Positions 19,479 to 34,665 of a stretch of DNA of 64,000 nt are shown here, in pieces. Position 1 is the first letter of the stretch; each line of letters opens with the position of its first letter. The DNA is from Escherichia phage FL18, in sequence record PP400780; one strand, 5' to 3'. The translations under genes were made by a program, and so were the position numbers. The notes under the pieces were generated by a model, which did not search any database, was not told the origin of the DNA, and saw only the letters and a list, made by a program, of their open reading frames with translations.

Positions 19479-19518
19479 TATAATGTCATGGACGGTAAAC
19501 TAATTAAATGAGAGAAAT

Positions 19519-20154
19519 ATGAAAACTACTCCTATTACTATCGCTATTGACGCAATCATAAAACAAGCTTCTTCTTTGGCCGCTATGGCCAAAGTAATTA
19601 GTCAAAACCCTGCTCGTTATAATGCTATTCTAGAAACTCTTCGACGCCCTGGACTTAGTAATTATGAAAGCCGGGTAATTATTACAGGTGTTGGTAAGAA
19701 TGCTAATATCGCAACTAAAGCTTCCGAGACATTTGCTTCACTAGGTATTCCTAGCATGTATTTGAACACTGGGCATTATTCTCACGGTGATGCAGGATTC
19801 ATTGCGCCTAATGATGTGTTGATTCATATTAGTCGTTCTGGTAAGACTGAAGAAATGATAGGTGTTGCTAAACATCTTCGTATGATTCGTCCTCAGGTTA
19901 AACAGATTCTGTTACATTGTAACCCAGACATTCCACAAGAATACGAAGCTCTTTTTGATTATACGTTCTGTACTGGCATCGCGGTAGAGGTTGATGAGAA
20001 TTCTCTGGCTCCGACTATGTCCACTACATTGTTGTTAGCGCTTATCGATACGTTTGCTATCAACCTTTCGTCTGAACGTGGATTTACCTCTAATGATTTC
20101 CTTAAGTTCCATCCAGGCGGTGCACTAGGTGCCATGTTACGAGGCGAACAATGA
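19519..20154 (+). CDS. SIS-domain sugar-phosphate isomerase, arabinose-5-phosphate isomerase-like (KdsD/KpsF N-domain)
   Basis: 211 aa; VIITGVGKNANIATK, HGDAG, HISRSGKTEE, FHPGGALG match the KdsD/GutQ SIS signature; no CBS domains. Confidence 0.8.
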   Translation: MKTTPITIAIDAIIKQASSLAAMAKVISQNPARYNAILETLRRPGLSNYESRVIITGVGKNANIATKASETFASLGIPSMYLNTGHYSHGDAGFIAPNDVLIHISRSGKTEEMIGVAKHLRMIRPQVKQILLHCNPDIPQEYEALFDYTFCTGIAVEVDENSLAPTMSTTLLLALIDTFAINLSSERGFTSNDFLKFHPGGALGAMLRGEQ

Positions 20155-20280
20155 AAGCAATAACAATAGGACTTTTACTATTGATGCTTGTCATGACTAT
20201 CTACTGGAGCTTAACGGCTCCGGTAATGATTCCAACACTTGTAATTGGATGGATTATGATTGGACTACAAGCAAAGTATG

Positions 20281-20307
20281 AATGCTTTAACTAGAATAGT
20301 GTACAAT
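20281..20307 (+). promoter_or_regulatory. MotA-box middle promoter upstream of nucleotidyltransferase-kinase gene
   Basis: AATGCTTTAA box about 19-20 nt upstream of TACAAT -10. Confidence 0.45.
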
Positions 20308-20335
20308 ACTCCTACTTACCAATGAGGACTTTAAC

Positions 20336-22021
20336 ATGAAAAAAGCTGTTATTCTTGGTGCTGGACTGGCAACTCGTTTGTATCCAATAACGCATCATAT
20401 TCCTAAGGTGCTTGTTAACTATAAACAAGATACTATTCTGAGCAATTTGTATACAATTTATTCTGACCTTGGCGCAGATGAAATTATTGTAGTAGTTCAT
20501 TCAAAATTTGCTGAAACTGTTCGAGCTTATTGTGAACAAGAAGGGTTCAATGTGACTATTCGTACAGTTGATGAAGCGTATGGTTCTGCTTATGCTCTTG
20601 CTAAATTACACAAAGATTTAGACGGCCATAATGTAATTGTTAACTGGTGTGATATTATTCCTGATTTTGGTTCATGGTCTTGGAATGTTAACGCAATCTA
20701 TGTTAAGGGTGACGAATGTCGATATAATTTCGACGGTGAAAATATCACTAACGTAGGTTCAACAGGTGGTAATGTTGTAGGAATTTATCAGTTCAAAGAC
20801 TGGGAATTCTATATGGGTTCTACTGATGAGGAAATTCATGAATACTGCAAAGGACGTGATTTCGTAGAATTCCTTTACGGCAGCGCATTCAATAAATCAG
20901 AGCTTATGAATCTAATTGATTTAGGTGATATGCCTAAACTTGAAAAAGCTCATGAAGTTCGTGAACTTAATCGTAGTTTTAATGCAGTTGAAATTGGTGA
21001 AGAAACTGTAACTAAATTCGCATTAACCGAACAGGGTCGAGCTCTTCAGAAAGATGAGATTTCGTGGTATCTTAAAGTGAAATCAGATTCAGTTCCTCAG
21101 TTAGTTTCTGTTAATGAAAATAACTTTGAAATGGAACGCATTAAAGGTAAGCCTGCATTTGAATATATTAAATCCAAATCAAGTCTTGCTCGTCCACAAA
21201 TTGTTGATGCAATTTTAGATGCACTGAAATTCAGCACAGACACTTATTTTGTAAGTCCTGAAACTGTTCGTCGTGATTTCACTAAAGAATTCTATACGAA
21301 AGTTATTGATCGTTGTGAAAGCATTCAACCATTGATTGATTCATTTGGTAAAATCACACATGTGAACTACACTAAGATTGGACGTCTGAAGCCAATGCTG
21401 AAACAAGCTTTAGAACACCTCATTCGTTATCATAACCGTTCTCAGGGACAGTACTCTGTTATTCACGGTGACCCGAACTTCAGTAATACTATGATTACTG
21501 ATAATGGCGAAGTCAAGTTTATCGACCCTCGTGGATATTTTGGTGAAACCAAGATTTACGGGCCAAAATTGTACGATGAAGCTAAAGTGCTTTATGCTGT
21601 TTCAGGTTATGATGAATTCAATGCTAATCCGACCTGGGGGCAGTTTACTATTGATGAAACAACTTGTAATGTGACTATTAACATCAATCCATTAGTTTAC
21701 AAATATAGAAAGATGAGTTCGTTTAACGAGTATCATCATTTGGCAGTGGCAATTATCTGGATTGCATTAGGCGGTTATTTCAAGAATAATCCACTTAAAG
21801 CGGTAGCCGCATATTATAAAGGTATGGAACTTCTGACTAAGCAATTACGTAACATGGGCCGTGTACTTCAGGACGGCTCTATTAGTTATGACGTAGCAGA
21901 ACCTGTAACGGCTACTCTGATTACAAAAAATCCTGGTAAATGGGTACTAACTGATAAAGAAACTGGTGTTTCCTATCGTCCAATCGGTGGCGATATCACT
22001 CATCAATGGGAACGAATCTAA
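20336..22021 (+). CDS. bifunctional sugar-1-phosphate nucleotidyltransferase / APH-fold sugar kinase
   Basis: 561 aa; N-terminal AVILGAGLATRLYPIT nucleotidyltransferase loop; C-terminal HGDPNFSN...FIDPRG phosphotransferase catalytic/Mg loops. Confidence 0.75.
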   Translation: MKKAVILGAGLATRLYPITHHIPKVLVNYKQDTILSNLYTIYSDLGADEIIVVVHSKFAETVRAYCEQEGFNVTIRTVDEAYGSAYALAKLHKDLDGHNVIVNWCDIIPDFGSWSWNVNAIYVKGDECRYNFDGENITNVGSTGGNVVGIYQFKDWEFYMGSTDEEIHEYCKGRDFVEFLYGSAFNKSELMNLIDLGDMPKLEKAHEVRELNRSFNAVEIGEETVTKFALTEQGRALQKDEISWYLKVKSDSVPQLVSVNENNFEMERIKGKPAFEYIKSKSSLARPQIVDAILDALKFSTDTYFVSPETVRRDFTKEFYTKVIDRCESIQPLIDSFGKITHVNYTKIGRLKPMLKQALEHLIRYHNRSQGQYSVIHGDPNFSNTMITDNGEVKFIDPRGYFGETKIYGPKLYDEAKVLYAVSGYDEFNANPTWGQFTIDETTCNVTININPLVYKYRKMSSFNEYHHLAVAIIWIALGGYFKNNPLKAVAAYYKGMELLTKQLRNMGRVLQDGSISYDVAEPVTATLITKNPGKWVLTDKETGVSYRPIGGDITHQWERI

Positions 22022-22407
22022 TGCACCGTGTAGAAAACATGCTTAATCTTTGTTTTGATGTCGATGATTGTATAACAGAGTGGAATAACAATCGTGATTA
22101 CGTGAACTTCAAACCTGACGTCGAAATGGTGTCTGCCATTAATGCCCTGTATGATGCAGGGCATACCATAACGCTTTACACTGCTCGCGGTATGAAGTCA
22201 GTAGGTCCTGGACGTATAGCAATTGACATTCTCCCAAGTCTGATTCAGAACTTGGAAAACATTGGTTTGAAGTACCATAATTTGCTAACACATAAACCAG
22301 TATATGATTGGATTATCGACGACAAAGCTATGCGTCCTGACGAATTCAAAGCTCTTATGAATAAAGGCGAATTCGAAACATTTAAATCGTATAAACCGAA
22401 TCTATAA
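22021..22407 (+). CDS. HAD-superfamily phosphatase (KdsC-like size)
   Basis: 128 aa from ATG overlapping upstream stop (TAATG); HAD motif I CFDVDDCIT. Confidence 0.65.
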   Translation: MHRVENMLNLCFDVDDCITEWNNNRDYVNFKPDVEMVSAINALYDAGHTITLYTARGMKSVGPGRIAIDILPSLIQNLENIGLKYHNLLTHKPVYDWIIDDKAMRPDEFKALMNKGEFETFKSYKPNL

Positions 22408-22463
22408 TAATTTAAGTAAGACCTGCAAAAACCATCGCGTCAATTAACGTGAGATGCAAAAAA

Positions 22464-23624
22464 ATGAATACTTTTAAAATTGGAACGAATTTTGATTTAG
22501 CTCTTCTTGATAAAATCGTAGAGCTCAATAAAACTTATCCTAATAGCTTGATAAACGAAGTATACGGCTCTACAAGAGAAATGGCTTTTGTAGCAGCCAG
22601 ACCTGATTTTAGGCTTCCTGACGTTGACAAAAAGATGTTAGAAGATTACGTTAAACGTTGTAACGAATTAGGTATTTGCTTTAACTATACACTCAACACG
22701 ATAAATCCTGGTTCAAAAAGAGAACTAGTTGAGTGGAAGAAGAAAGCTATTCAGGATTATGTTCAGTATCTTTGGTCAATAGGTGTATGGCGTATTACTA
22801 TCGCTAACCCTGTTGTTATGGAAATTGTTCGTGAAGTCAATAAAGACATTGAGATTGAAGTTTCAACAATTCTACATGTCGATGCTGTAACTCAAATCAA
22901 ATACTTGCATGACCAGTATAATATCAAAAAGGTCTGCTGTGGAATTCATAAGAACCGTTCAGTTTCTTTCCTGAAGCGTGCAGCAGAGTTTTGCAATAAG
23001 AACAATATAATATTTGAAGTTCTTGTAAATGAGTTCTGTTCTAATGCTGGTAAAGGGTATACAACACATTGTAGCTATCGTGACTCTTGCTATATTTTCC
23101 ATAGTACTGATGTTACAGCTGATGATGCTAAATCCTTAAACGGATATCCTATGCAGCACTGTATTAAAGCTCGTGATACAGACCCATTTAACTGGTTGAG
23201 AACTCGTTTTGTTCGTCCTCAAGATTTGAAACTTTATAATGATATTGGTATCACTCAATTCAAAGTTTCAGGACGTACAGGTAGCACAGACTACATTTTG
23301 AAAGTTCTTGAAGCATACGCTTCTGAAAAGTTTGAAGGTAATTTGTTAGAACTGTGGAAGCCTTTAGAGACTATTTTCACTCTTGAAAACGAAACTGAGT
23401 TTTCACATACAGTAAATATTGAAACCTCTTTGTTAGATGGCTTTTTAGAAAAAAGGTGGTTCAGACATCCAGATTTCGATTGTGCTAATGAAATCTGCGG
23501 GACGACGTGTACATATTGTGAAAGATATTATAAACGTCAATTATCTAAAAACGGGTTAGCAGAAAACTCTATATCTATTATTGATATAACTAACTCTGAT
23601 GACGCTTTGAGGTACCCGGAATGA
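22464..23624 (+). CDS. U32-peptidase-family-like protein (TIM-barrel, Cys-rich)
   Basis: 386 aa from first ATG; N-terminal VYGS..FVAAR..NYTLNT resembles U32 barrel; EFCSNAGKGYTTHCSYRDSC cysteine cluster; family assignment tentative. Confidence 0.45.
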   Translation: MNTFKIGTNFDLALLDKIVELNKTYPNSLINEVYGSTREMAFVAARPDFRLPDVDKKMLEDYVKRCNELGICFNYTLNTINPGSKRELVEWKKKAIQDYVQYLWSIGVWRITIANPVVMEIVREVNKDIEIEVSTILHVDAVTQIKYLHDQYNIKKVCCGIHKNRSVSFLKRAAEFCNKNNIIFEVLVNEFCSNAGKGYTTHCSYRDSCYIFHSTDVTADDAKSLNGYPMQHCIKARDTDPFNWLRTRFVRPQDLKLYNDIGITQFKVSGRTGSTDYILKVLEAYASEKFEGNLLELWKPLETIFTLENETEFSHTVNIETSLLDGFLEKRWFRHPDFDCANEICGTTCTYCERYYKRQLSKNGLAENSISIIDITNSDDALRYPE

Positions 23625-23860
23625 TTTCTAGAAAAACTTTTAATCACCAACTTAATGAAGAGATTTTGACTACGAAACTGAACACTAACGAACAAATTCT
23701 TAAAAAGGCCCTTATGGGCCTGTTTGAAACCAAAGCGGCTAAAGTGATTAAAGGACCTGTTCAATTAGAATATTACGCTGATACATTTCTTCATAGTGTT
23801 CTTGGAAGTATCGATGCTGAAGCTTTACGTTATATCAACATTGCCAAGAAATTCAAATAA
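23621..23860 (+). CDS. hypothetical protein (79 aa)
   Basis: ATGA-coupled ORF inside the cassette. Confidence 0.5.
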   Translation: MISRKTFNHQLNEEILTTKLNTNEQILKKALMGLFETKAAKVIKGPVQLEYYADTFLHSVLGSIDAEALRYINIAKKFK

Positions 23861-23883
23861 GCTTTACGAATTGAGTATATAAT
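23859..23883 (+). promoter_or_regulatory. MotA-box middle promoter upstream of hydroxymethylase gene
   Basis: AAGCTTTAC box about 18 nt upstream of TATATAAT. Confidence 0.4.
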
Positions 23884-23902
23884 AAATTGTATTGAGGTAA
23901 AC

Positions 23903-24619
23903 ATGGGGAAACATAACACAATGAAATATATCAAAGCCGCAGATTTTCAAACCGCATTTAAAGCAGTCAATCGTGAAATTTTAGAAAACCCGGAATTCGT
24001 AACTGATTCTCGTATTGGACGTTGTAATGAAATTGGGTCTATGACAGTAGTTGTTGACACTCCATCATCATTCAAAATGACTGACCCACGTATTAACCGC
24101 ATCTCTTATGAATATGCCGAAGACTTCTGGAAGTTTATGATTTCTGGTGGTACCAACGCAGAAGAAGCGTTTAAGGCATATCCTAATGTCGCTAAATTTA
24201 TTTCTAAACCAAAATCAGATGTTTTGCCGGCGAACTTCAATACTTTCTATGGTCCTCGCATTGCGGCCCAATTACCAGCTCTTCTAAAAGAACTTAAAGA
24301 GAAGCCTAACTCTCGAAGAGTTGTGTTCCAAATTCTAGAAAGTTCTGATCAGGCTTTGCTTGATTCGGATGAAACGCTTGAATATCCATGTACTGACTCA
24401 GTGACTTATTATATTCGTGATGGTAAGCTTTATACCCACTGTCATATGCGTTCTCAGAACTGTGCTGTTGTTATGCAGTTGGATTTTTATCTCCAAGGAA
24501 AATTACTTCATTATATCGCTAACGAATGCGGTGTAGAAGTTGGTGATTATACTCATACCATGGTAAGTGCCCATGTGTTTGAACGTGATTTTGATTATGT
24601 TAAAGGATTCCTTGACTAA
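23903..24619 (+). CDS. thymidylate-synthase-fold pyrimidine hydroxymethylase, divergent (gene 42 position; likely dCMP hydroxymethylase)
   Basis: 238 aa; PNSRRVVFQIL, catalytic-Cys context YPCTDSVTYYIRDGKL, MRSQN, HTMVSAHVFERDF align with T4 gp42/TS motifs but overall divergent. Confidence 0.65.
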   Translation: MGKHNTMKYIKAADFQTAFKAVNREILENPEFVTDSRIGRCNEIGSMTVVVDTPSSFKMTDPRINRISYEYAEDFWKFMISGGTNAEEAFKAYPNVAKFISKPKSDVLPANFNTFYGPRIAAQLPALLKELKEKPNSRRVVFQILESSDQALLDSDETLEYPCTDSVTYYIRDGKLYTHCHMRSQNCAVVMQLDFYLQGKLLHYIANECGVEVGDYTHTMVSAHVFERDFDYVKGFLD

Positions 24620-25518
24620 TGGCTATTTTCCGCGTACCAATCTTGAGTATGCGGTCTTATGAAACTGGACAGTATGCTATCCTTAAGGATGGCAACTTCC
24701 AACTTCATTTGCACCGTGCTAATCCGGGTGATGTGATTACATATCCACGTAATGCATCTGATATTAAAGAATGCGAACGTCTTTTCCCAGAATTTAAGTT
24801 TGTTCCATTATGGTATAAAGATAACGCTTATAACACTCGTAAATATTTCTGGTCTGAAAATGAATTTGTGGTTGATTCATTAATTGCTTATTATGATTGC
24901 GATTTTCTAATCACAGATATAACTGGATATGACGGCGCTTTTGATGTAGAATTCAATTTCAATATCACTGCAGACCCTAATAAACCACGTTTTTATATTG
25001 ACGAATTCTTAAAAACCGACATGTTGTCGGTTAATCGTTCAATCCAAACAACTGTGTTGAATGAACGTCAAAAAGAAGTGCTGGTTAACGCAGGTGCAGA
25101 TGGTAATAAGATTATCGTAACGCAGAAAGTTATACGTCCTTCCATCATGCAGCGTCTTGTAGGTGATTTGGCTCCTATTTATCTAGATGGTATTTTTCAT
25201 CCATTTCGAATTAGTGACCCGTGCTATCGTTTTGAACAAGTGGTTGAATGTGCAATTCAATTAGGTCAACCGCTTTATATAACCGATCCAAATAATAGCT
25301 TTGACAGAAATAAGTATCCTGAAGAAGCGTTGATTCGAATTTTTAAACCAACTAAAACTGAGTACTATCAAATTCTTAAAGGACGTCCGAAGATTCAATA
25401 TTTCGAAAATCCTGAAGAGGTATTTCATCCAGGTCTTGGTGAGTTCATCTACTTTAATGCTTTAATTTCTTCACCGTATAATATACCTAAATATGAAGAT
25501 GTCGTAATCGAGGAATAA
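24619..25518 (+). CDS. hypothetical protein at beta-glucosyltransferase locus (candidate DNA sugar transferase)
   Basis: 299 aa; no similarity to T4 beta-gt noticed; function by position only. Confidence 0.5.
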   Translation: MAIFRVPILSMRSYETGQYAILKDGNFQLHLHRANPGDVITYPRNASDIKECERLFPEFKFVPLWYKDNAYNTRKYFWSENEFVVDSLIAYYDCDFLITDITGYDGAFDVEFNFNITADPNKPRFYIDEFLKTDMLSVNRSIQTTVLNERQKEVLVNAGADGNKIIVTQKVIRPSIMQRLVGDLAPIYLDGIFHPFRISDPCYRFEQVVECAIQLGQPLYITDPNNSFDRNKYPEEALIRIFKPTKTEYYQILKGRPKIQYFENPEEVFHPGLGEFIYFNALISSPYNIPKYEDVVIEE

Positions 25519-25519
25519 A

Positions 25520-26068
25520 ATGGCTAAAATTATTTTAGTAGATGGCCCGGATAATGCTGGTAAAACAACTTTCATTAATGACATAATGGAAATTAGTGAA
25601 AGATATGTAAAAATTGATTTCCCTAAACGAACAGTTGATGGACGTTTCGATGTTAAGTCTCGAAATGAAGTTGGCTGTTTTGAAACGATGTTGAATTATT
25701 TAGACCCTACTAAGATTTATCTGTTAGACCGTGGATATATTAGTAACTGGGTTTACGGACGTATTCGACAAGATGCGGACTCGGTTCTTGACGTTTATGA
25801 ACAGGATTATATTCGTCTTTGCCAAAACCATGATGTGTTCACAATTATTTTAACACGTAACGAAATGACTGAAAGTTTTGAAGACGACCTTATTACTTTG
25901 TCTTCATTCGGTTTTAATACAGTCATTTCACATTTTGAAGAGTTTGCAATTCATAACAAAATCCAAACGTATCAATTACTTAATCATGATGGTGCTAACA
26001 AAGTTATAGGATTTAATGCAAGCGAACGTAATGGTTTGATTACAGAAATCATCAAATGGGCTCGTTAA
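25520..26068 (+). CDS. P-loop nucleotide kinase, thymidylate-kinase-like
   Basis: 182 aa; Walker A VDGPDNAGKTT, LLDRGY (DRY/H-like) motif. Confidence 0.65.
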   Translation: MAKIILVDGPDNAGKTTFINDIMEISERYVKIDFPKRTVDGRFDVKSRNEVGCFETMLNYLDPTKIYLLDRGYISNWVYGRIRQDADSVLDVYEQDYIRLCQNHDVFTIILTRNEMTESFEDDLITLSSFGFNTVISHFEEFAIHNKIQTYQLLNHDGANKVIGFNASERNGLITEIIKWAR

Positions 26069-26085
26069 GAGCCATTTAAAGTTTT

Positions 26086-26113
26086 AAATGCTGTATAACC
26101 CTTAGTATATAAT
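26086..26113 (+). promoter_or_regulatory. MotA-box middle promoter upstream of uvsX
   Basis: AATGCTGTA box about 20 nt upstream of TATATAAT. Confidence 0.45.
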
Positions 26114-26167
26114 CATCTTATCTTTTAAACATGAGTAAAATATAATGATGCCTATGGAAAAAATACA

Positions 26168-27340
26168 ATGTCTGATTTAAAATCTCGTCTGATTAAAGCT
26201 TCTACTTCTAAAATGACTGCAGACTTGACTAAGTCTAAGCTGTTTAATAATCGTGATGAAGTCCCTACTCGTATTCCGATGTTGAATATTGCACTAGGTG
26301 GTGCTCTGAATGCAGGATTGCAATCAGGCTTGACTATTTTTGCTGCACCTTCTAAACACTTTAAAACGTTGTTTGGACTGACCATGGTTGCAGCATATAT
26401 GAAGAAATATAAAGATGCAATCTGTTTGTTTTATGACTCAGAATTCGGTGCTTCAGAATCTTATTTTCGTTCAATGGGTGTTGATTTAGACCGTGTAGTT
26501 CATACACCAATTCAGTCAGTCGAACAACTTAAAGTTGATATGACTAATCAGCTTGACGCTATTGAACGCGGTGATAAAGTTATTATCTTTATCGATTCAA
26601 TCGGTAATACTGCATCTAAGAAAGAAACCGAAGATGCATTGAACGAGAAAGTTGTAGGTGATATGTCTCGTGCTAAGGCACTTAAATCTCTTTTCCGTAT
26701 TGTGACTCCTTATCTGACTATTAAAGATATTCCATGTGTTGCAATCAACCATACCGCAATGGAAATTGGTGGATTGTACCCTAAAGAGATTATGGGCGGC
26801 GGTACAGGTATTCTTTACTCGGCTAACACTGTATTCTTTATCTCTAAACGTCAGGTTAAGGATGGCACTGAATTGACCGGTTATGACTTCACGTTGAAAG
26901 CAGAAAAATCTCGTACAGTTAAAGAGAAATCTACTTTCCCAATCACAGTTAATTTTGATGGTGGTATCGACCCATTCAGTGGCTTGTTAGAAATGGCAAC
27001 TGAAATCGGTTTTGTAGTTAAGCCTAAAGCTGGTTGGTATGCTCGTGAATTCCTTGACGAAGAAACAGGTGAAATGATTCGTGAAGAGAAATCATGGCGT
27101 GCTAAAGCTACTGATTGTGTAGAATTCTGGGGTCCTTTGTTTAAACACAAACCTTTCCGAGATGCAATTGAAACTAAATATAAACTAGGTGCTATCTCTT
27201 CTATTAAAGAAGTTGATGACGCTGTTAATGACCTTATTAATTGCAAAGCAACAACTAAAGTTCCGGTTAAAACTTCTGATGCTCCGTCTGCAGCAGATAT
27301 AGAAAACGACCTTGACGAAATGGAAGATTTCGATGAATAA
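26168..27340 (+). CDS. uvsX: RecA-like recombinase UvsX
   Basis: 390 aa, close match to T4 UvsX as recalled (MSDLKSRLIKASTSK..., acidic C-terminus). Confidence 0.95.
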   Translation: MSDLKSRLIKASTSKMTADLTKSKLFNNRDEVPTRIPMLNIALGGALNAGLQSGLTIFAAPSKHFKTLFGLTMVAAYMKKYKDAICLFYDSEFGASESYFRSMGVDLDRVVHTPIQSVEQLKVDMTNQLDAIERGDKVIIFIDSIGNTASKKETEDALNEKVVGDMSRAKALKSLFRIVTPYLTIKDIPCVAINHTAMEIGGLYPKEIMGGGTGILYSANTVFFISKRQVKDGTELTGYDFTLKAEKSRTVKEKSTFPITVNFDGGIDPFSGLLEMATEIGFVVKPKAGWYAREFLDEETGEMIREEKSWRAKATDCVEFWGPLFKHKPFRDAIETKYKLGAISSIKEVDDAVNDLINCKATTKVPVKTSDAPSAADIENDLDEMEDFDE

Positions 27341-27674
27341 TCTCGATGATTTAAATCTAGAAATCATTGATGAATCCCCTTCTTCGGAAGGGGAGGACAT
27401 TCGCAAAGAACGAGTGTTTAATGAATCTCTTAAAATTATCCGTTCAGCAATGGAAAATGTCATTCAAGAGATTCTGATTACACTTGAAGACGGTTCCCAT
27501 CATATAGTCTATATTACAAAACTAGACTGGGTTGATGGTAAAATCGTAATGGACTTTGCAGTTCTTGACCAGGACAGAAAAGCAGAACTTGCACCACATG
27601 TTGAAAAATGTGTTACAATGCAAGTACAACAAGCTTTTAATGAACGAACCAAGAAAAAATTTAAATTCTTTTAA
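27333..27674 (+). CDS. 40: gp40-like protein (head vertex assembly chaperone)
   Basis: 113 aa from ATG overlapping uvsX stop; position between uvsX and 41 as in T4. Confidence 0.6.
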   Translation: MNNLDDLNLEIIDESPSSEGEDIRKERVFNESLKIIRSAMENVIQEILITLEDGSHHIVYITKLDWVDGKIVMDFAVLDQDRKAELAPHVEKCVTMQVQQAFNERTKKKFKFF

Positions 27675-34143: not shown

Positions 34144-34665
34144 ATGGCACACTTTAACGAATGTTCACAACTTATTTCTGGTGTTGATAAAGCAGAAGAA
34201 GCTTATTTTAATGCTCTGATTCACGAAGATAAAGACCCACTGCAGGTAATGCTTGATATGCAGAAATCTTTACAGGTTCTTCTGGCAAATGACAAGCCTG
34301 AACATAACAAACATCCTGATGAATTGGCTACTGCTGGTGATGTTGTTGATTGGCTGCGTAATCAGAAAGATTATATTGATGATGAATTTCGTGAACTGCT
34401 GACTTCACTTGGCGGTATGAGCAATGGTGAAAAAGCTGCCAGCAGTGTATGGAAGCCGTGGAAGGCACAACACGCTGAATATCGAAATCGTCGTATCGAT
34501 GAACTGTCTCCTGAAGACCAGCTTGAAATTAAATTTGAAATGATTGATATTCTGCATTTCGTTCTAAATATGTTCCAAGGTCTAGGACTTTCTGCTGAAG
34601 AAATCTTCAAACTGTATTATCTGAAAAACCAACACAACTTTGAACGTCAGGATAATGGTTACTAA
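34144..34665 (+). CDS. 56: dCTP pyrophosphatase gp56 (MazG-like)
   Basis: 173 aa from ATG (MAHFNEC); close to T4 gp56 as recalled. Confidence 0.92.
   Translation: MAHFNECSQLISGVDKAEEAYFNALIHEDKDPLQVMLDMQKSLQVLLANDKPEHNKHPDELATAGDVVDWLRNQKDYIDDEFRELLTSLGGMSNGEKAASSVWKPWKAQHAEYRNRRIDELSPEDQLEIKFEMIDILHFVLNMFQGLGLSAEEIFKLYYLKNQHNFERQDNGY

Follow-up and report, generated by a model that had tools for sequence, protein, structure and literature searches.

The last gene of a DNA-modification cassette in Escherichia phage FL18 (sequence record PP400780; by the window we mean the whole stretch of 64,000 nucleotides that was analysed) encodes a 182-residue P-loop kinase with the fold of thymidylate kinase (TMK). 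On balance, this protein is probably the dedicated deoxynucleoside monophosphate (dNMP) kinase of the 5-hydroxydeoxycytidine (5hodC) branch, with 5-hydroxy-dCMP (5hodCMP) or possibly its arabinosylated form as substrate. The gene lies at 25520..26068 on the plus strand and is the ortholog of RB69p045 and DLP3 gp78. As the first-pass annotation had it, it stands at the end of the cassette, being the last gene before uvsX: it begins 2 nt after the stop of a 299-residue glycosyltransferase gene and is followed, after a gap of 99 nt, by uvsX (26168-27340), gene 40 and the gene 41 helicase. The kinase gene had already been catalogued. RB69p045 was described in 2021 as a TMK homolog "presumably" participating in the synthesis of arabinosylated nucleotides (PMC8056088), and both RB69p045 and DLP3 gp78 appear as the putative "nucleotide kinase" of the cluster, a structure-based label, in Lee et al. 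2026 (PMC13326640 Table 1).

According to the mechanism that we propose, the protein would be the soluble kinase of a three-part module made of a 5hodCMP synthase, a glycosyltransferase and the kinase itself, and would use ATP to turn a modified pyrimidine mononucleotide, made by the phage, into the corresponding diphosphate. Host nucleoside diphosphate kinase and the phage polymerase would then carry the modified nucleotide into DNA. The substrate would be 5hodCMP, or possibly arabinosyl-5hodCMP supplied by the adjacent transferase, and the phosphorylation of 5hodCMP to 5hodCDP is the parsimonious version. The kinase would thus be a functional, non-homologous counterpart of T4 gene 1 that travels with the synthase gene; carried in a self-sufficient module, it would make a recipient phage independent of a resident kinase able to accept the new nucleotide. 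We infer the catalytic activity of the protein, a dNMP as its acceptor and the identity of that dNMP; a soluble dNMP kinase of the 5hodC branch is suggested by TMK-type residues, by an acidic isoelectric point (pI) and by a tight linkage to 5hodCMP synthases, whatever sugar genes are present.

The kinase gene, its motifs and its fold

The open reading frame (ORF), which starts with ATG, is a real gene, beyond chance. Its product matches PHROG 761 (E 7e-45) and is 98% identical to RB69p045 (NP_861735.1), with the same gene order, and tblastn revealed homologs in 343 phage records, each with at least 80% coverage. Across 17 homologs, with identity down to 42%, 39 residues are invariant. Among three Mosigvirus orthologs the dN/dS ratio is about 0.15-0.18, a value based on just 8-12 substitutions.

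The first-pass annotation had described a TMK-like P-loop kinase, and this description was borne out: the protein is TMK-shaped, and the two sequences that had been pointed out, VDGPDNAGKTT (residues 7-17) and LLDRGY (residues 68-73, from nucleotide 25721), align with the corresponding motifs of the vaccinia and E. coli enzymes. The P-loop reads G9-P-D11-N12-A-G-K15-T16 (25544..25567, plus strand, as for all features listed here), and G9, D11, N12, A13, G14, K15 and T16 are invariant. When the profile is aligned with vaccinia TMK (2v54), D11 falls on the P-loop aspartate of TMK and N12 on the type-I basic residue. The predicted acceptor-nucleotide binding segment, located by motif alignment, comprises FPKRT (residues 34-38) and GRF...RNE (residues 41-50) at 25619..25669; F34, P35, K36, G41, R42, R48, N49 and E50 are invariant in the 17 homologs, and FPKRT aligns with FPQRS of vaccinia TMK and TREPGGT of E. 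coli Tmk. In the structure model this segment has a lower pLDDT (65-71). The DR(Y/H)-type motif, LLDRGYISNWVY (residues 68-79, 25721..25756), has D70, R71, S75, N76 and Y79 invariant and aligns with IVDRYAFSGVAY of vaccinia TMK and with GDRHDLSTQAY of E. coli Tmk; in the profile alignment to the vaccinia enzyme, LDRGYISNIVY is set on VDRYAFSGVAY. In TMKs, the equivalents of the conserved residues bind the 3'-OH and the 5'-phosphate of the acceptor nucleotide. The lid-like loop, R113-N-E-M-T-E-S-F120-E-D122-D123-L-I125 (25856..25894), carries a family-specific F-x-D-D motif in which R113, F120, D122, D123, L124 and I125 are invariant. In the model it is a coil between the strand 105-111 and the helix 129-145, and a [FY]-x-D-[DSE]-K-I motif recurs in the distant, fused members of the family that are described below.

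When a profile of the 17 sequences was used as query, thymidylate kinases were the best whole-domain matches (vaccinia 2v54 with E 0.007, followed by the yeast, human and M. tuberculosis enzymes), and dTMP kinases were also the top structural matches of the protein. The alignment of the family with E. coli Tmk by hhalign reached 80.6% probability over residues 1-82; a phmmer search of the single sequence against PDB sequences gave no meaningful match. The protein has the three-dimensional fold of TMK and both the carboxylate P-loop (G-x-D/E-x-x-G-K-S/T) and the DR(Y/H/F) motif, with GPDNAGKT and DRG invariant. It is a P-loop kinase with the TMK fold, belonging to a divergent lineage of that fold. 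The family is uniformly acidic (pI 4.75-5.8; 4.99 for the window kinase), much like the soluble kinases E. coli Tmk (5.3) and T4 gp1 (5.1) and unlike the proven DNA kinase M6 gp54 (8.66) and T4 beta-glucosyltransferase (9.05).

Linkage to 5-hydroxy-dCMP synthases and the choice of substrate

The pathway leading to arabinosyl-5-hydroxycytosine DNA was worked out only in 2025-2026. RB69 DNA contains mono- and di-arabinosyl-5-hydroxycytosine, not arabinosyl-hydroxymethylcytosine (Lee et al. 2026, PMC13326640). Experiments have shown that RB69 gp48 is a flavin-dependent 5hodCMP synthase, and an Asn at the position of Asp169 of E. coli ThyA is an experimentally validated signature of these synthases (PMC13326640). 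In the window, the ortholog of gp48 (ORF048c; 99.2% identity) is a thymidylate-synthase (TS) homolog of 238 residues (23903-24619, plus strand; Pfam PF00303, E 2e-15), in which the MRSQN...D signature is present. It is followed by the glycosyltransferase (GT) gene, 24619-25518 on the plus strand, whose 299-residue GT1 product (PHROG 3891, E 1e-155) is equivalent to RB69 gp46:47. The first-pass annotation had considered hm-dCMP as the substrate and phosphorylation of the hydroxymethyl group; this chemistry is inapplicable, since the base of RB69-like phages is arabinosyl-5-hydroxycytosine, which is made from 5hodCMP and has no hydroxymethyl group (PMC13326640). The annotation of T4 is in line with what had been said of gene 1 serving hm-dCMP in that phage. 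Of the readings considered, the other option then offered, a modified dNMP requiring a kinase of its own, is the best supported; the kinase is tied to the DNA-modification cassette.

The kinase family is narrow. A word-indexed search of 5.8 billion proteins gave 27 matches, and an exhaustive profile search of 1.84 billion representatives gave 314 at E≤1e-3 and 44 at E≤1e-10. A six-frame search of the whole T4 genome, with filters off, found no kinase homolog (top ORF with E 0.26), and the syntenic T4 locus reads 43-imm-42-bgt-segA-uvsX. When the records containing the kinase and those containing the TS homolog were counted by genus with tblastn, the two numbers were nearly equal, namely 176/176 for Escherichia, 15/15 for Shigella, 9/9 for Enterobacter, 9/9 for Serratia, 7/7 for Proteus, 25/26 for Klebsiella and 57/63 for Acinetobacter. 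The TS homolog lies within a few genes of the kinase in 12 of the 14 genomic contexts examined, usually in the order TS-GT-kinase, and the 5hodCMP-synthase signature is conserved in those TS homologs that were aligned. The kinase belongs to the cassette of Marfavirus F48, Dhakavirus UP19, Bragavirus phiP4-3 and Shewanella phage Thanatos-2; its position in the Marfavirus, Dhakavirus, Bragavirus and Thanatos cassettes varies, since it follows either the HAD phosphatase gene or the GT1 gene.

Metagenomic members of the family behave similarly. Seven out of nine (on contigs L008, L012, L014, L020, L021, L023 and L026) stand beside a TS homolog; the TS homologs of L008, L012 and L014, as well as the fragment in L026, have MRS[QEN]N and the downstream Asp. 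Contig L009 begins just upstream of the kinase, which is followed by a GT-like gene, and the ninth and most distant member (E 2.5e-7) lies beside structural genes, unlinked to a TS homolog. Several of these contigs are not T4-like and encode a family-A polymerase, DnaB, a beta clamp and ThyX. The genes stand as TS-GT1-kinase in the window, in Thanatos and in L020, L021, L023 and L026, and the GT1 and kinase genes often overlap. The kinase family, as these observations newly show, marks 5hodCMP-synthase cassettes across unrelated phages.

The same distribution bears on the possibility that the protein is an ordinary dTMP kinase which raises the supply of dTTP, for instance in case the specificity of the gene-1 kinase has shifted in phages with 5-hydroxycytosine (5hoC). 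The top structural matches are indeed dTMP kinases, annotation pipelines label the protein as thymidylate kinase, and the P-loop Asp and the DR motif are of TMK type. However, the curated dTMP kinase models fail, the gene is absent from T4, whose demand for dTTP is equal, and it is placed after a 5hodCMP synthase and a GT rather than after a thymidylate synthase; in L012 it adjoins the TS homolog, with ThyX about 10 kb off, and its distribution mirrors that of the 5hoC-type TS homolog. We consider this explanation improbable. A host-like TMK common in T-even phages, which the first-pass annotation had named as the finding that would speak against a special role, does not fit either with a T4 genome devoid of the homolog or with the failure of the curated TMK models.

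An activity in the sugar branch, or on another small molecule, appears improbable too. In this case the protein would be a UMP, nucleoside or pentose kinase feeding UDP-arabinose, or a non-catalytic NTP-binding partner of the transferase. However, the kinase persists in L012 and L014, with no sugar-activation genes nearby, and in a Rhizobium phage with hexose-using relatives a TMK-like protein stands beside a TS and a GT. For the arabinose 5-phosphate kinase step there is already an assigned enzyme, the bifunctional AfhE-type protein (PMC13326640 section 27), and the invariant P-loop Lys and Thr, together with the DR motif, argue for catalysis rather than for a non-catalytic partner.

Eight distant family members (314-357 residues, E 1e-19 to 1e-5) consist of the kinase domain followed by a domain of about 140 residues, which is an MBD4-like HhH-GPD domain (E 4e-9 to MBD4 DNA glycosylase structures). 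Four of these kinase-glycosylase fusions are P0059 (L008, 8001-9074), P0065 (L009, 127-1092), P0070 (L012, 6205-7173) and P0060 (L014, 1446-2390). Their kinase domains keep the P-loop carboxylate, the DR pair, the S/T and the Y. As read from the sequences, the fused domain retains the catalytic Asp in seven out of eight cases; it is basic in seven out of eight (pI 8.5-9.7; the value for P0075 is 5.9). Wherever the flank is visible, the fusions adjoin TS homologs of the 5hodCMP-synthase type, in phages with family-A polymerases. No stand-alone MBD4-like ORF was found in the window or in T4. The fused domain might remove deaminated 5-hydroxyuracil, or it might tether the kinase to DNA.

Two of the contigs that carry fusions show further peculiarities. 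In L008 (6616-9613) the TS homolog has an N-terminal extension of about 150 residues (394 residues in total), and the fusion gene is followed by an FMN reductase gene (PF03358), which fits the flavin dependence of 5hodCMP synthases. In L012 (7176-9377) a GT4-family glycosyltransferase and a radical-SAM/SPASM enzyme adjoin the fusion, and hint at a further elaboration of 5-hydroxycytosine in that phage.

The fusions are an argument for a kinase that would act at the DNA level, phosphorylating 5hoC in DNA on its 5-hydroxyl in analogy to the DNA kinases that act on 5-hydroxymethyldeoxyuridine (5-hmdU), namely the 5-HMUDKs, which the first-pass annotation had also put forward. The HhH-GPD fold of the eight distant members binds DNA and flips bases, 5-HMUDKs pair or fuse with HhH glycosylase-like transferases (PMC8989533), and hhalign gives 83% probability to M6 gp54 over the P-loop half. 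Against this stand the lack of any match to PF18748 at E≤1, when the same library recognises M6 gp54 with E 7.7e-18, the DR motif kept where M6 gp54 has FEG, and an acidic family as compared with the basic M6 gp54. In addition, an aryl phosphate on the C5 oxygen would, on chemical grounds, have no obvious route to the observed O-glycoside, nor is any chemical demand for a 5-O-phosphate evident, the catalytic Asp kept in most fusions suggests that the fused domain may be just a repair glycosylase, and the window has no MBD4-like ORF. We judge a DNA-level kinase of this kind to be highly unlikely.

Several observations weigh against a dedicated kinase of the 5hodC branch. The protein does not match Pfam PF02223 even at E≤1, and it scores 16.1 bits against the TIGR00041 cutoff of 83.25, with the P-loop alone being matched. 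An invariant Asn12 takes the place of the type-I P-loop Arg/Lys, the short lid-like loop has Arg113 as its only invariant Arg and contains an acidic DD motif, which is unusual, and the sequence alignment with TMKs is limited to the N-terminal half, the C-terminal half being unalignable. Judging from these sequence features (Asn12, the single-Arg lid, the DD motif and the failed TMK models), catalytic competence is not assured. The kinase is also among the least conserved proteins of the cassette (38-42% identity, as compared to 78-80% for the TS homolog), and the MBD4-like fusions could be a hint of a DNA-level role. Moreover, RB69 gp159, described as the gene-1 ortholog (so that the kinase is extra to the gene-1 enzyme, as the first-pass annotation supposed), converts 5hodCMP into 5hodCDP in vitro (PMC13326640), and the gp48 TS together with gp159 is enough to obtain 5hodC in E. 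coli plasmid DNA (PMC13326640 section 24). Because gp159 acts on 5hodCMP, a plain 5hodCMP kinase looks redundant in T4-like phages. In the accessible literature we found no enzyme assay, knockout or essentiality result for the kinase; in particular, essentiality data on its gene were not found in the LC53/Bas46 transposon work, and the Thanatos paper has no mutants or assays of the kinase.

The redundancy with gp159 disappears if the adjacent GT arabinosylates 5hodCMP and the kinase phosphorylates the bulky product, which the gene-1 kinase would be unable to handle, so that the polymerase would insert a nucleotide that is already glycosylated. This is a sub-case of the dedicated dNMP kinase, which we evaluated separately and regard as conceivable but rather unlikely. 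It is favoured by the recurrent TS-GT1-kinase order, with the often overlapping GT1 and kinase genes, by the acidic pI of GT1 (5.06), and by the occurrence of a TS, a GT1 homolog and a TMK-like protein also in Rhizobium phage RL2RES, where the RL38J1 relatives have hexoses instead of arabinose. Furthermore, Lee et al. report the individual GTs to be inactive on 5hoC-DNA, and their experiments do not distinguish a first arabinosylation of the mononucleotide from a post-replicative one (PMC13326640 section 26). On the other hand, the 5hodCDP made by gp159 would bring bare 5hoC into DNA, so that glycosylation at the DNA level would be needed anyway, and the proposal has to explain why virion DNA is not reported to contain bare 5hodC (PMC13326640 sections 22-24). 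Both glucosyltransferases of T4 act on DNA, the addition of the later arabinoses likewise takes place there (PMC13326640 section 26), and the homology of the Rhizobium kinase is doubtful. With the same reserve, TS-GT1-kinase might be pictured as a nucleotide-level assembly line, on which dCMP would be hydroxylated, then arabinosylated while still a free mononucleotide, and then phosphorylated by the kinase, the polymerase receiving a dCTP analogue that already bears its sugar, with the MBD4-like domain policing the DNA of other phages for unmodified or deaminated bases.

Neighbouring genes of the cassette

The 7.9-kb region around the kinase shares 97.7-99.1% identity with the 30 phage records that match it best; most of these are Mosigviruses, among them JM17, APCEc01 and PhAPEC2. 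The window phage is a Mosigvirus (RB69-like) and its cassette is the RB69 gp55-gp45 cluster. The order of transcription is DNA polymerase, isomerase, nucleotidyltransferase plus kinase, HAD phosphatase, U32 protein, 79-residue protein, TS homolog, glycosyltransferase and TMK-fold kinase. A scan of the cassette for promoters and terminators gave no signal above chance.

The first genes after the polymerase, all on the plus strand, include two whose products resemble those of the Afh genes, reportedly the ones of phage HY126 studied by He et al. in 2026. These first genes encode an arabinose-5-phosphate isomerase (19519-20154; NCBIfam KpsF/KdsD, E 5e-32), an AfhE-like nucleotidyltransferase plus kinase protein of 561 residues (20336-22021; matching nucleotidyltransferase families and Pfam NTP_transferase) and an AfhF-like HAD phosphatase (22006-22407; capsule phosphatase TIGR01689). 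Their roles in the supply of UDP-arabinose follow PMC13326640 section 27, itself citing He et al. 2026. The GT1 enzyme was proposed as the first arabinosyltransferase by Lee et al. 2026 (PMC13326640). Both the glycosyltransferase (24619-25518) and the nucleotidyltransferase-kinase (20336-22021) are single intact ORFs in the window; in the RB69 reference record both genes are split (RB69p046/047 and RB69p052/053), and the intact ORFs agree with the statement of Lee et al. that the splits in RB69 are sequencing errors. The Thanatos homolog of GT1 (L006, 7684-8586; TH1_063 in Thanatos-1) reportedly has UDP-xylose pyrophosphorylase activity in vitro (PMC12838424), a report which sits awkwardly with the role of GT1 as first arabinosyltransferase.

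Between the phosphatase and the TS homolog, the gene of a U32-family protein of 391 residues (22449-23624, plus strand; RB69 gp50; Pfam Peptidase_U32, E 7.5e-11) is directly followed by that of a conserved 79-residue protein (23621-23860, plus strand; gp49). The U32 protein also has a weak match to NCBIfam UbiU (E 9e-4), and the pair (22449-23860) corresponds to PHROGs 5757 and 8601. The U32 family includes the hydroxylases RlhA, TrhP and UbiU/V, which work without O2; RlhA forms the 5-hydroxycytidine of 23S rRNA. An anaerobic route to 5-hydroxycytosine could therefore be provided by the U32/79-residue pair, alongside the TS homolog, which depends on O2. The label given to the U32 protein by Lee et al. 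2026 is 'sugar or heterocycle reductase' (PMC13326640). The Dhakavirus cassette has neither this pair nor the isomerase, and keeps the kinase.

The cassette proteins differ in their conservation. Between Mosigvirus and Marfavirus, identity is 86% for the U32 protein, 78% for the TS homolog, 68% for GT1, 67% for the HAD phosphatase, 43% for the bifunctional enzyme and 42% for the kinase; judged by the orthologs of the cassette in L002 and L003, set against the window, the enzymes that modify the base evolve much more slowly than the kinase and the sugar-activating enzyme. The alignment of the best-matching phage, Escherichia phage JM17 (PP400779.1, 45689-54289), with window positions 19500-27400 is in two pieces and is about 700 bp longer in JM17, where the region is annotated with a GIY-YIG homing endonuclease; this insertion is absent from the window. 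Elsewhere in the window there is an ortholog of the T4 gp56 dCTPase (34144-34662; 71% identity by tblastn), and no ortholog of the gene-1 kinase is present within the window.

Significance and comparison with known systems

Since it tracks 5hodCMP synthases in T4-like and in unrelated phages, the kinase family is a useful genomic marker of 5-hydroxycytosine-based modification. The kinase is also the obvious reagent for the question, posed by Lee et al. 2026, of whether it is the nucleotide or the DNA that receives the first sugar. If sugars were added on a nucleotide-level assembly line, the T4 paradigm, in which they are added only after replication, would be broken. An enzyme selective for 5-hydroxy- or glycosyl-dCMP would aid the enzymatic synthesis of modified dNTPs; should the protein be just one more kinase for 5hodCMP or dTMP, there is nothing unusual in the finding.

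Compared with TMKs (E. coli Tmk; vaccinia A48R, 2v54), the window kinase is linked to a cytosine-modifying TS homolog and not to thymidylate synthesis, and it differs in the Asn that replaces the type-I P-loop Arg/Lys and in the short, one-Arg lid with DD. The role proposed for it is like that of the T4 gene 1 kinase (1dek), namely the phosphorylation of a modified dCMP analogue for DNA synthesis; homology between the kinase and T4 gp1 was tested and rejected.

Like 5-HMUDK (M6 gp54), it is a small P-loop kinase in a phage cluster for pyrimidine hypermodification, and its distant relatives are tied to an HhH glycosylase-like domain (PMC8989533). Unlike that system, the window cassette makes 5-hydroxycytosine and not 5-hmU, its TS homolog being of the cytosine-specific 5hodCMP-synthase type. 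A Pfam scan of seven cassette proteins, which excluded the upstream isomerase, revealed no AADT (PF18724) gene.

The Pootjesviridae proteins RL38J1 gp214 and RL2RES_098 share the neighbourhood of TS, GT1 homolog and TMK-like kinase (PMC13326640 Table 1), and in RL38J1 the 5hoC is hexosylated (PMC13326640 section 28). The GT1 homolog of RL2RES matches the window GT1 with E 8e-8, and the gene order is as in the window. However, the TMK-type P-loop of RL2RES_098, EGLDRTGKDT, keeps the type-I Arg, and its DR motif reads PR; hhalign with the kinase family gives a probability of 49% and hmmsearch gives no match, which makes homology doubtful. ORF-170 of Tenacibaculum PTm1, also considered as a family member, does not belong to the family.

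Finally, with respect to RB69p045 and DLP3 gp78, the protein itself is no different from the window kinase. What is new here is the picture at the level of the family: a divergent TMK-fold lineage, with links to non-T4 phages and with MBD4-like fusions.

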